Source: Xanthobacter sp. VTT E-85242 (GTDB taxonomy: Bacteria; Pseudomonadota; Alphaproteobacteria; Rhizobiales; Xanthobacteraceae). From it: 64,000 nucleotides of DNA. The position numbers and the translations under genes were made by a program. Where the stretch lies: NCBI RefSeq assembly GCF_043195095.1, contig NZ_JBAFWN010000001.1, one strand, 5' to 3'. Positions 12,901 to 15,900 of this stretch are shown here, piece after piece; positions within the stretch are counted from its first letter, which is position 1; every line of letters begins with the position of its first letter. Under the pieces are notes generated by a model. The model was not told where the DNA came from. It did no database searches and saw only the letters and a program-made list of their open reading frames with translations.

Positions 12901-15900
12901 CAGCCACGGTGGGCTGCTCGAAGAAGGCGCGCAGCGGCACCGCACGGCCGAGCGCGGCCTCCACACGGGCGAGGATCGCAAGCGCCTTCAGGCTGTGGCC
13001 CCCGAGATCGAAGAAGCTTTCGGTGACGCCCACCTGCTTCAGGCCCAGCACGGTGGCCCAGATGCCGGCGATCACCTGTTCCTCGCTGGTGCGCGGCGCC
13101 ACCATCAGGCGGGCCGGCACGCGCGCGCCCGGCAAGGCGGCGAGCGCGGCGCGATCCGGCGTGCCGTCTTCGCCTAAGGGCAATGCGGGGCAGGCCAGGA
13201 ACGCGTCGGGCCGGCGCTCCACCGGCAGGCGCAGCGCGCAATAGGCGGCGAGCGCGGCGAAATCCGGCGCGGCGCCCGCATGGCCGACGACGACGGCCGT
13301 AAGGCCCTCGCCCTCCCGCACCAGGGCGGCGTCGGCAAGCGCGGGATGCTCGCGCAACACCTGGGCGACGGGGCGCAGGTCCACCGGGCCGGAGCGGGTG
13401 AAGGCGAAATCCTCTTCCCGGCCGAGGATCGCGAGCCGCCCGTCCGCCGCCAGCACGCCCAGTTCGCCGGTGCGCATCCAGGCGCCCCCGGCGGCGCGTG
13501 CGGCGAGCGGCGCGGCAACGCCGATGGCGGCGGGGCGATCGAAAACGTCGAAAGTCGCGCGGCCGTTGATGTCGGCGGCCCCCTGCGCCGCGCGATCGGC
13601 GGACGAGAGCGGGAGGTCCGAGAGCGCGGTCTGTGGCGCGCGCACGCCCTCGGCGAGCAGGGACAAGAAGCTGTCGAGCCAGCGGCGGGCGGTCGGCGCA
13701 TCGGCCACCGTCCCCGCATGGTCGAAATCAATCAGCGTTTCCCCGTTCAACTCCAGCAGGTTCAGGAACAGGTCCTTCTTGGCGTGGCGCACCGGCGGGG
13801 AGATCCAGTCAAGCGCAAGGCCGGGCAGGCTCAGTTCGAAACCGCGATCGAGGTTGAACAGCACGTTGACGCTGATGCCCTCGGCCGGCACCTCGTCGCT
13901 CAGGAGCTGCGCGGCTTCGTGCTGGGCGCGGTTCAACGCCGCGCGCACCTGCCCCACCAGCGTATCGAATGGGACGGCGGCATCGAGGTCCAGCGTCACC
14001 GGCATTATGGCGGAAGCGGCGCCCACCATCACCGGCAGGCCAGCGGTGGTGTGGCCCGCGAGCGGCACGCCGATGGTGAGGCGGCGCTGGTTGCCGAGCC
14101 GGCAGAGCAGCAGCGCATAGGCCGCCAGCATCACCATGAAGGGGCTCACGCCCTTCCGGCGGGCATAGGCCTTGGCATCCTCGAAAATGTCGGCGCCGCG
14201 CACGCGGTCCGCCTTCAGGTGCACCCGTCCGTCATCCGCAGCATCAATGCGCGGCAGCGCCACCGGCACGGCGGAGGGCATCTCCCCCACAGCGTGAGGA
14301 ACGCCGCGCGTCCAGGCGACGAAATCGCCGAACGACCGCGCGGGCGGCAGTTCCACAGGGACGCCGGAGACCTCGGCGCCATAGAGCGCGGCAAGCTCGC
14401 TCGCCATCAGGCCGAGCGACCAGCCGTCGGCGACGATGTGGTGGGCGGTGAAGGCGAACACATGGCGCTCGCCCGAAAGGCGCAGCAGCAACGCCCGCAC
14501 CAGCGGCCCGCGGGAGAGATCGAAAGCGGTCGCCAGGTCGCGCTCCAGCCGCGCCCGCACGCCGGCGCTCGCCATGTCCTCGCACGTGAAGGCAGCTGCG
14601 GCGGTGCTGGAAAAGTGGCAGCGGGCCTCATCCAGCCGCACGATGCGCAGTGCATCGTGGCGCGCCACGAGCGCCGCGAACGCGCGCTCCAGCGCCGCCG
14701 GGTCCAGCGGGCCCGACAGGTCGAGCGCGATCATCTCATTATAGGCAAGGCTCGCCTGCGGATCCGCCGCGATGAGCGCGCGCATCTCGCGCTGGCCCCG
14801 GCCAAGCGGGAAAGCGCCCGGCTGCGGGCCGGCCGGCGGTGGTGCGGGATCGCGCGGCGGCAGCCAGCCCCCCGCGCGCATCTCGGCAATGCCCAGCTTC
14901 ACCGCATCAATGAGGAAGCGCACCTCCGCCTCCCCGTGGGCGGTGGAGAGGAAGCAATTGCGCCCCTCCCACACGAACACGCCGTTCTTCAGCAAGTGAT
15001 AGTTCAGGATCTCGGTGTCGCCGCCATAGTCGAAGCGAAACAGCGAGGAGAAGTGCACCATGCGGATGGGCAGGTCCTCGGCCGTGAACCAGGCGTTCAG
15101 CTCGTCGCACATGGCCTTGGTGCGCGCGTTCAGTGCGTCTTGCAGCGTCGCGCCCTCGGCCGCGAGATAATCCAGGGTCGCCTCGGCGGCGGCCATGGTG
15201 AGGGGATGGTTGTTGAAGGTGCCGGCGACGAAGGCGGTGCGCGCGGTGGGCACGCTGTCGTCGCCATAGAGCCAGTTGCCGCCGTCCACCGCGTCGAGAT
15301 ATTGCGCCGTGCCGGTGACGACGCCGATGGGCAGCCCGCCGCCCACCACCTTGCCGTAGGTGACGATGTCCGCCTTCACCCGGAAATGATGCTGGGCACC
15401 GGCGGGATGGACGCGGAAGCCGGTGATGGTCTCGTCGAAGATCAGCGCGACGCCGTGCGCTTTCGTGAGATCGCGCAGGCGATGCAGGAAGGCGCGCGGC
15501 TGCACCACGGGATCGCGGCTCTGCACCGGCTCCACCAGCACGGCGGCGAGGCTGTCGGCATGACGGGCGAGGATGTCGAGCGCGTCGTCCTCGCCGTAGC
15601 GCAGCACGATCACATCCTCCACCATGCCTTCCGGCGTGCCGTCGCTGACCGGCATGGTGTTGACCTTCTCGCCGTCCGCCCAGCCCACGGCCAGCACGCC
15701 GTCGAACGTGCCGTGGTAGGAATTGACGAAGGTCACGATCTTGCGGCGGCCGGTCTTGGCGCGGGCGAGGCGCAACGCCACCATCACCGCCTCGGTGCCG
15801 GTGGTGAAGAAGGCCACGCGCTCGGCGCCCGTCATGTCCTGGATCTTGCGGGCGACCCGCCCGGCGCGCGGGGTCTGCGGGCCGATGGGATAGCCGGCGG

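Follow-up and report, generated by a model that had tools for sequence, protein, structure and literature searches.

How does a carrier domain of a nonribosomal peptide synthetase (NRPS) receive its amino acid when the adenylation (A) domain in front of it has been reduced to a stump? This question is raised by a hybrid polyketide synthase (PKS)/NRPS gene in a 64,000-nt stretch of DNA from Xanthobacter sp. VTT E-85242 (contig NZ_JBAFWN010000001.1), which was analyzed as a whole and is called the window below. A reading of the sequence alone, the original prediction, had placed a stump with A-domain motifs A7-A10 at 13112-13534, between the first condensation (C) domain and the first peptidyl carrier protein (PCP), and this location was confirmed; the stump comprises aa 2690-2830, between domain C1 and carrier domain T1. 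It appears to be a dead A-domain relic in a working A-less C-T module, T1 being loaded by one of the other A domains of the line, with A2 as the favored candidate; a probability of roughly 0.6 is given to this reading. Judged from sequence comparison, the relic is a conserved mark of an uncharacterized family of assembly lines for beta-amino lipopeptides, with members in Xanthobacter, Pseudochelatococcus, Azospirillum, Methylobacterium, Bradyrhizobium, Endothiovibrio, and Thermoanaerobaculia.

Organization of the synthetase

The gene, the largest of the window, was an uninterrupted open reading frame (ORF) of 4891 aa at 6926-21601 on the minus strand. The domains assigned by Pfam were, in order, AMP-binding (loading domain of the fatty acyl-AMP ligase [FAAL] type), PP-binding, ketosynthase (KS), acyltransferase (AT), PP-binding, class-III aminotransferase (AmT; Aminotran_3), Condensation (C1), PP-binding (T1), C2, C3, AMP-binding plus AMP-binding_C (A2), PP-binding (T2), and C4. 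A2 is the complete A domain that had been noticed in the later module of the same protein, and Pfam agreed with that assignment, placing it at aa 3818-4308. The features around the stump, with the evidence in parentheses, were as follows (ACP, acyl carrier protein).

6926..21601, minus strand: hybrid PKS/NRPS gene, FAAL-ACP-KS-AT-ACP-AmT-C1-(A relic)-T1-C2-C3-A2-T2-C4 (ORF, translation, Pfam)
13637..14818, minus strand: C1 condensation domain, aa 2262-2655, HHIVADGWS at 14417-14443 (Pfam PF00668; PDB C-domain matches; HHxxxDG invariant in 9 orthologues)
13583..13615, minus strand: LPLSSADRAAQ, aa 2663-2673, putatively where the former C-A linker began, immediately upstream of the deletion (alignment with the C-A-T modules of the window; motif mapping)
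13541..13582, minus strand: possible A6 relic, GAADINGRATFDVF, aa 2674-2687, a weak assignment (ungapped MAFFT alignment to the GELxIGGxGVARGY region of A2, A7, and A3; pLDDT below 50 in AlphaFold2 [AF2])
13112..13534, minus strand: stump as first noted, aa 2690-2830 (sequence homology; AF2 fold like that of the C-terminal subdomain of A domains [Asub]; Foldseek)
13457-13480, minus strand: A7-like motif WMRTGELG, aa 2708-2715, within the stump
13355-13426, minus strand: degenerate A8, within the stump
13199-13228, minus strand: A9-like motif, within the stump
13142-13180, minus strand: A10-like motif PLGEDGTPDRAAL, aa 2808-2820, within the stump, with Thr2814 (13160-13162) in place of the catalytic Lys
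12872..13090, minus strand: T1 carrier domain, aa 2838-2910, FFDLGGHSLKA, Ser2870 at 12992-12994, intact (Pfam PF00550, E 6.7e-17; pLDDT 87-94)
11522..12829, minus strand: C2 condensation domain, aa 2925-3360, LCL-like, invariant HHxxxDVWS (Pfam, PDB matches, orthologue alignment)
10202..11500, minus strand: C3 condensation domain, divergent, directly upstream of A2, aa 3368-3800, HHGIADKAS (Pfam, orthologue alignment)
8642..10150, minus strand: A2, complete adenylation domain, aa 3818-4320 (Pfam; sequence around A4/A5)

Identity and boundaries of the relic

On aa 2690-2830, Pfam gave only a sub-threshold match to AMP-binding_C (E 0.007, 17.7 bits), and AMP-binding (PF00501) was absent. When compared with A2 by BLASTP, the stump showed 38% identity over 133 aa (E 3e-16), confined to the last ~130 residues of A2. 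A phmmer search of the PDB returned 81 chains, all matched at the C-terminal ends of adenylate-forming enzymes (best, 6o6e_B, E 2.5e-10), and in NCBIfam the stump matched the C-termini of acyl-CoA ligase families (E 2.6e-13). These comparisons place the homology to A domains far beyond chance. Matches to the stump at E ≤ 1e-3 were found in 21,281 proteins from a library of 1.84 billion; ranking of the representative proteins by whole-protein score favored giant NRPSs with multiple A domains, and protein P0054, from Pseudochelatococcus, was the sole informative entry. A word-indexed protein search with the stump alone returned a single A-domain fragment of no relevance; the high Ala content and low complexity of the query probably account for this.

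Upon tblastn with the full A2 domain, residues 375-503 alone matched at the stump site (13124-13477), and no A-core-like sequence was detected near the stump in any frame. The distance between C1 and T1 was 182 aa, too short for a complete A domain, which takes about 500 aa. The tblastn, Pfam, and spacer-length results agree that the N-terminal core (A1-A5, P-loop, and substrate pocket) is absent, as had been stated originally.

The stump region was aligned with full A domains, as had been suggested, by using the segments from the C end to the T start of modules 1, 2, and 7, and the deletion boundaries were mapped. LPLSSADRAAQ (aa 2663-2673) may, by our own reading, be the start of the usual C-A linker, and aa 2674-2687 (GAADINGRATFDVF) bear a weak, ungapped resemblance to the A6 region. 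Clear homology to A domains runs from WMRTGELG through the degenerate A8 (LGREEDFAFTRSG...) to PLGEDGTPDRAAL and is followed by the A-T linker. With the stretch of aa 2663-2687 taken into account, the relic probably starts somewhat earlier than first noted. From this alignment, ~390 residues carrying A1-A5, including the P-loop and the specificity pocket, appear to be missing.

Loss of catalytic residues and predicted fold

The A10 motif of the stump reads PLGEDGTPDR, in which the Lys of the consensus PxxxxGK is replaced by Thr2814. A7 reads RTGE, with Glu for the Asp of the consensus YxTGD, and A8 reads GREEDFAFTRSG, the hinge and Lys of the consensus GRxDxQVKIRG being gone. The remaining fragment is predicted to be incapable of adenylation. 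The stump has neither A1-A5 nor the catalytic residues; therefore, the PCP needs an external loader. Dependence of the first PCP on loading from outside its module had been claimed, and it is borne out by the deletion of the core together with the loss of the A10 Lys, the A7 Asp, and the A8 hinge.

AF2 was run on a small alignment of the A-T segments of the window. In the resulting model, aa 2655-2730 were disordered with low confidence (pLDDT <50), aa ~2739-2829 adopted an Asub-like beta-alpha-beta fold (pLDDT 51-80), and T1 was confidently predicted (pLDDT 87-94). In Foldseek, the model was aligned with solved NRPS modules, over their A-T parts (E 1e-10), and with MenE, over its C-terminal domain (E 1.5e-5). 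According to the model, the fold of the C-terminal subdomain is retained in the relic.

Age and distribution

That an assembly error or frameshift might hide a full A domain had also been considered, and this was ruled out by the presence of the relic, in frame, in at least nine independent assemblies. A collinear in-frame relic was present in two Xanthobacter genomes and a Rhizobiales metagenome-assembled genome (MAG), with 87-89% identity, and an in-frame relic was also found in a MAG fragment labeled Burkholderiales (P0152). The Pseudochelatococcus orthologue P0054 (4863 aa), which carries the JGI label 'iturin family lipopeptide synthetase A', also has the relic, as do orthologues from Azospirillum, Endothiovibrio, Methylobacterium, and Bradyrhizobium.

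The spacer between C1 and T1 was 174-195 aa in all eight proteobacterial sequences. At the position of the A10 Lys these sequences had T, T, T, a gap, T, A, S, and E, and never Lys. The A7 motif was progressively eroded across the orthologues and was deleted in Endothiovibrio. In the Thermoanaerobaculia orthologue, C1 and T1 were separated by only 32 aa and the C2-C3-A-T2-C4 order downstream was unchanged, which indicates that the relic itself is dispensable for persistence of the architecture. On this evidence, the relic is an old in-frame feature and not an artefact, and the A-less state is common to both phyla sampled.

A megablast search of plasmids yielded short generic NRPS matches alone, and a metagenome scan for extension of the Pseudochelatococcus contig yielded distant epimerization (E) domains alone. 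AmT-C homologues of about 1100-1250 aa were considered as further C-T stumps and rejected; they are ACP-AmT-C proteins that end after the C domain.

Selection on the relic and its neighbors

Ratios of nonsynonymous to synonymous substitution (dN/dS) were computed among three Xanthobacter-type genes. The value for the relic was about 0.3, as compared with about 0.1 for the C-terminal subdomain of A2. C1 and C2 gave about 0.2 and C3 0.13-0.17, and T1, with 0.02-0.12, was under the strongest purifying selection of all segments. Across six genera, mean pairwise identity was lowest in the relic (0.44) and was 0.63 in T1, 0.61 in the A2 C-terminal subdomain, and 0.52-0.57 in the C domains. T1 was the best conserved of the five carrier classes (0.64 within class), and its FFDLGGHSLKA core and Ser2870 were invariant in the orthologues. 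HHxxxD was invariant in C1, C2, C3, and C4 (for C1 and C2, the motif was checked in nine orthologues), and C1, C2, and C3 evolve at the same rate as C4.

These values point to the relic as a vestigial spacer that is weakly constrained, conserved in length, and partly folded, and to the C1-T1 module as A-less but in use. The conservation of T1, C1, C2, and C3 argues against module skipping.

The highest dN/dS of the gene (0.24-0.54) was that of the Ala/Pro-rich low-complexity linker between ACP2 and AmT (aa 1681-1790; 16231-16560, minus strand), in which 17-27 gap columns were seen among close relatives.

Loading of T1

By the favored explanation, an old in-frame deletion of about 390 aa would have removed A1-A5. 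What is left, the end of the core (A7, possibly A6) and the whole C-terminal subdomain (A8-A10), is a catalytically dead relic; it would persist between C1 and T1 as a spacer that is partly folded and under loose constraint. FAAL-ACP-KS-AT-ACP-AmT would make a beta-amino fatty acyl chain; C1, which should accept this chain from ACP2, would then join it to an amino acid placed on T1 by another A domain. The loader would be an A domain of the assembly line itself, preferably the Thr-like A2 of the same polypeptide, which would serve both T1 and T2, and the type II thioesterase (TEII) of the cluster may assist as a shuttle. Both the aminoacylation of T1 as such and the A domain responsible for it are what we infer from sequence.

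The adenylate-forming domains of the 64 kb were FAAL, A2, A3, A4, A7, and the stump. A3, A4, A7, and the TEII are encoded by the following genes (MT, methyltransferase domain; TE, thioesterase).

2..5038, minus strand: next NRPS gene, cut by the window edge, A3-T3-C5-A4(MT)... (Pfam)
25883..29893, minus strand: terminal module C7-A7-T7-TE, 1336 aa (Pfam; A5-region sequence)
34585..35448, plus strand: type II thioesterase, GYSLG (Pfam PF00975, 119.7 bits)

No stand-alone A or A-T gene was found in the window by tblastn with full A2, and none was present in the flanks of seven related loci (L030, L038, L039, L041, L042, L044, and L045); T1 is thus most likely loaded by one of the A domains of the line. 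C1-T1-C2-C3-A2-T2-C4 is inherited as a block, present in eight genera and wholly absent in locus L043. A2 is favored because it is in the same polypeptide as T1, because it is co-inherited with T1 in this block, and because fimsbactin and thalassospiramide provide precedents. Specificity codes are read at the standard PheA positions; read by hand, they were as follows.

A2: DFWSVGMVHK, Thr-like
A3: DVRHLALLAK, unassigned
A4: DAATIAAVCK, Phe-like, interrupted by a methyltransferase domain
A7: DLTKLGHIGK, Asp-like

Several points weigh against loading by A2 as outlined. The codes were read by hand, and the link between A2 and T1 is deduced from sequence. T1 has no specific likeness to T2: family-wide identity is 0.39 for T1-T2 and 0.37 for T1-T7, and within the window T1 is closest to T7 (49% identity). 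Simple double loading leaves a surplus C domain, C2 or C3, unaccounted for. The moderate constraint on the relic and its fixed length could mean a residual docking role and not mere spacing. Since the search for A or A-T genes covered the window and the related loci, such a gene may lie elsewhere in the genome.

The AsnB-type neighbor and the C2-C3 pair

Two further features of the locus bear on how T1 is loaded and used. One is the gene that lies between the synthetase gene and the next NRPS gene:

5051..6922, minus strand: AsnB-type asparagine synthase, 623 aa, MCGIVG N-terminus (Pfam GATase_7 plus Asn_synthase; NCBIfam TIGR01536)

The protein exceeds the TIGR01536 equivalog cut-off for glutamine-hydrolysing asparagine synthase (446 vs 267 bits), and its Cys2 is intact. 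AsnB was present at the equivalent position in L030, L038, L039, and L041-L045. In L043 it is located at 7298-9220, following a first protein that ends at AmT, and this locus has neither the C1-T1 module nor a C domain linking lipid and peptide. AsnB is absent from the Methylobacter variant (L040), which has the Asp module and no lipid part. Its presence in L043 and absence from the Methylobacter variant indicate that the distribution of AsnB follows the FAAL-PKS-AmT part and not the A-less carrier.

The other feature is the number of C domains, the assembly line having six, with five peptide carriers and four A domains. The C2-C3 pair between T1 and A2 (10202-12829, minus strand) is conserved from Proteobacteria to Thermoanaerobaculia. 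C2 is of the LCL type, closest to C4 and C5, and has strong PDB matches, yet it carries the unusual invariant motif HHxxxDVWS. C3 is divergent, is fused to A2, keeps HHxxxD[K/R/P/A], and is the most constrained of the C domains. In comparisons at E ≤ 1e-10, C3 bore no particular likeness to starter-type C domains of known structure or to the dehydrating domain of AmbE. The end of the next NRPS protein and the start of C-A-T-TE were considered as a second C-C tandem and rejected, the last domain in the orthologue being an E domain (HHLVMDIVSW, ESHGRE, TRTVGWF, FNYLGQ).

Alternative explanations

The enzyme that charges T1 might instead be a dedicated stand-alone A or A-T protein whose gene lies elsewhere in the genome, or A7 or A3 acting in trans; in either case, the TEII could pass on the aminoacyl group as a shuttle, as in WS9326A or SyrB1/SyrC. 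For A-less modules, shuttles of the TE-like and SyrC types have been described (PMC10510592; PMC8949500), and a TEII gene accompanies the family as a conserved accessory, being present in the window, L039, L043, and L044. In addition, the carrier of the window with the greatest likeness to T1 is T7, from the free-standing C-A-T-TE protein (79 bits, vs 55-59 bits for T2 and T3). This likeness is not kept across the family, however, and was rejected as a hint of loading by the Asp module; the window and the related loci examined offered no stand-alone A or A-T gene; and the TEII proteins share 30-43% identity and an ordinary GxSxG motif, which fits generic editing enzymes. We regard such a route as unlikely, and the TEII could be either an ordinary editing enzyme or a shuttle of the WS9326A type. 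The alpha/beta hydrolase at 35497-36513 was rejected as a SyrC-like shuttle, because of its signal peptide and its lack of a GxCxG motif. Loading through AsnB, which had been put forward at the outset, would require that the enzyme activate aspartate and hand it over, or that it amidate carrier-bound Asp to Asn. This would be a parallel to albicidin and cystobactamid, in which the inactive A domain has as its partner an ANH-like domain that acts on Asn (PMC8949500). In every member with the lipid-initiation protein, AsnB lies, translationally coupled, between the synthetase gene and the next NRPS gene. Against this, it scores as a canonical asparagine synthase with Cys2 kept, has no carrier-binding or A domain, and tracks the lipid part, occurring also in L043, where the A-less module is missing; a role of AsnB in loading T1 is judged unlikely, and this explanation as a whole very much so. 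By our own suggestion, AsnB may supply Asn or an amine donor, or amidate a carboxylate.

The remaining explanations concern the use of the module. Module skipping is known in other NRPSs, and it had been offered for this one: module 1 would be wholly dead, T1 and perhaps C2 would be passed over, and C1 or C3 would transfer the lipid directly to Thr-S-T2. The absence of an A domain and the one surplus C domain (six for five carriers) are in its favor. Set against them are T1, the most conserved carrier across phyla (dN/dS 0.02-0.12, identity 0.63-0.64), with its core motif and its phosphopantetheine-attachment residue, Ser2870, intact; HHxxxD, retained in C3 as well as in C1 and C2 of the nine orthologues, at a rate of evolution equal to that of C4; and the C1-T1-C2-C3 order, which persists from Acidobacteriota to Proteobacteria. 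Skipping is thus not supported, its likelihood being very small. It is also conceivable, although improbable, that T1 holds something other than a plain proteinogenic residue for linear extension and that T1-C2-C3-A-T2 acts like the in-line tandem C domains of icosalide, one C domain acylating the Thr on T2 and the other linking the chain on T1 to a second nucleophile, to give an ester or branch, or else modifying the residue, for example by dehydration. C2 and C3 are both apparently intact and conserved, the former with its unusual motif and the latter with the strongest constraint; the A domain that follows is Thr-like, so that a hydroxyl nucleophile is available; and there is the icosalide precedent (PMC10510592). 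C3, on the other hand, resembles neither starter-type C domains nor the AmbE domain in particular, and a tandem-C model still requires a loading route for T1. Loading of T1 by A2 could be extended, tentatively and with rather low expectation, to a new assembly-line logic shared across phyla and not due to decay, in which one Thr-type A domain feeds two carriers around an active C pair, the surplus C domain carries out ester formation, branching, or dehydration, and the obligatory AsnB partners AmT instead of the peptide modules.

Comparison with known systems

In MycA and ItuA, the lipid-initiation block makes a beta-amino fatty acid, to which the first residue is then joined. Between its C and T domains, MycA contains a complete A domain that activates Asn, and it lacks an integrated AT. 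The Pfam order found here resembles these proteins in its succession of acyl ligase, ACP, KS, ACP, and AmT followed by C and T for lipid initiation, and differs from MycA in that the A domain is a relic and in that the protein also includes an AT and a further module with tandem C domains.

The statement that in-trans aminoacylation is known but uncommon was judged fair, with FbsE, SyrE, WS9326A, thalassospiramide, and ramoplanin as precedents. Truncated or absent A domains are complemented by another A domain in fimsbactin FbsE of Acinetobacter baumannii, in which a truncated, dead A domain precedes an intact carrier, the loading of which is attributed to the Ser/Thr-type A domain of FbsF, serving several carriers, and tandem C-family domains are also present (PMC11291136). 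In FbsE, unlike here, the tandem domains are cyclization domains upstream of the truncated A domain, whereas ordinary tandem C domains lie downstream of T1 in the present protein; moreover, the pathway of FbsE leads to a siderophore and starts from an aryl group, whereas the present one has a beta-amino fatty acid and a putative loader.

A-less or A-dead modules are likewise complemented in SyrE/SyrB1/SyrC, albicidin, cystobactamid, ramoplanin, and enduracidin (PMC8949500), and A-less modules are served by other A domains in WS9326A and thalassospiramide (PMC10510592). The C1-T1 module is similar to SyrE module 9 and to those of WS9326A, thalassospiramide, and ramoplanin/enduracidin in being a C-T module without a working A domain, served in those systems by another A domain, sometimes via an alpha/beta-hydrolase or TE-like shuttle (PMC8949500, PMC10510592). 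Most of them have a dedicated stand-alone A-T protein in the cluster, unlike the window and related loci. Nearest in logic is thalassospiramide, for which re-use of an in-line A domain has been proposed (PMC10510592). Albicidin and cystobactamid share with the present locus a dead in-line A domain and an enzyme of the asparagine-synthetase/ANH superfamily, but their ANH-like domain lies within a stand-alone A-T protein and their A domain is full-length though degenerate, whereas here a free two-domain AsnB follows the lipid part. In the icosalide synthetase, a branch or an ester can be formed by active C domains that lie in tandem within the line (PMC10510592), and two consecutive, apparently competent C domains precede one A-T pair, as they do here; its A-proximal C domain is of the starter type, bringing in a second fatty acid, an assignment that cannot be made for C3.

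In the literature searched, no characterized product was found for the cluster in Xanthobacter, Azospirillum, Bradyrhizobium, or Methylobacterium. If C1-T1 is in use, the predicted product is a beta-amino fatty acid plus five residues and not plus four; automated annotation would miss the module or predict a module without substrate. The family is widespread in soil bacteria, many of them of nitrogen-fixing genera, and combines a first module that lacks an A domain with two tandem C domains and with AsnB as an obligatory gene. Its members form a natural series, from relic spacers of 174-195 aa, with A7 eroded or lost in several, to 32 aa in Thermoanaerobaculia, which should be useful for asking whether and how an orphan Asub affects the trafficking of carrier domains, and by what route an in-line A domain gets access to another carrier.

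Gene cluster and family variants

Full-length orthologues of the next NRPS gene are about 2460 aa and have the order A-T-C-A(MT)-T-E, the E domain being seen in the L030 orthologue. A4 is interrupted by a methyltransferase domain (2-1750, minus strand), and its code has Ala for the usual Trp239; the code suggests an unusual, methylated aromatic or bulky residue, which would then be epimerized.

The genes upstream of the synthetase gene encode an S58 (DmpA-type) peptidase, a D-aminopeptidase-like beta-lactamase-fold protein, C-A-T-TE, a porin, Band7, DUF697, and TEII. The S58 (DmpA/BapA-type) peptidase gene and the D-aminopeptidase-like gene are at 21627-22814 (plus strand) and 23512-25134 (minus strand). 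Peptidase-type genes, including a beta-lactamase-autotransporter fusion, also occur in the relatives (L038, 19210-23178; L044, 19499-22912; L045, 19118-21694). Their products could process, or give self-protection against, a peptide with beta- and D-amino acids.

An accessory set comprising ABC exporter, beta-lactamase(-autotransporter), TEII, DUF697, Band7, and C-A-T-TE was found near the orthologues in the Rhizobiales MAG, Methylobacterium, and Bradyrhizobium. In the window, DUF697, Band7/SPFH, and TEII are at 33217-33834 (minus strand), 31230-32783 (minus strand), and 34585-35448 (plus strand), and these genes are syntenic with NRPS genes in Methylobacterium (L044, 22949-26575), DUF697 being syntenic also in Methylobacter (L040, 9285-9767). 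From this synteny, the cluster of the window probably extends to about 35.4 kb.

Two loci carry only parts of the system. Methylobacter L040 (10001-22709) has A-T-C-A(MT)-T-E, C-A-T-TE, and ABC alone, without the lipid part, and L043 (620-18137) has FAAL-PKS-AmT, AsnB, A-T-C-A(MT)-T-E, TEII, and a phosphopantetheinyl transferase, without modules 1 and 2. Such modular versions suggest evolution of the family by block exchange.

The window has a G+C content of about 70%. At 50000-57000 it falls to 0.57-0.61, as compared with about 0.65-0.72 elsewhere; this stretch contains a 656-aa ORF (52623-54593, minus strand) with no Pfam match, and the region may have been horizontally acquired.

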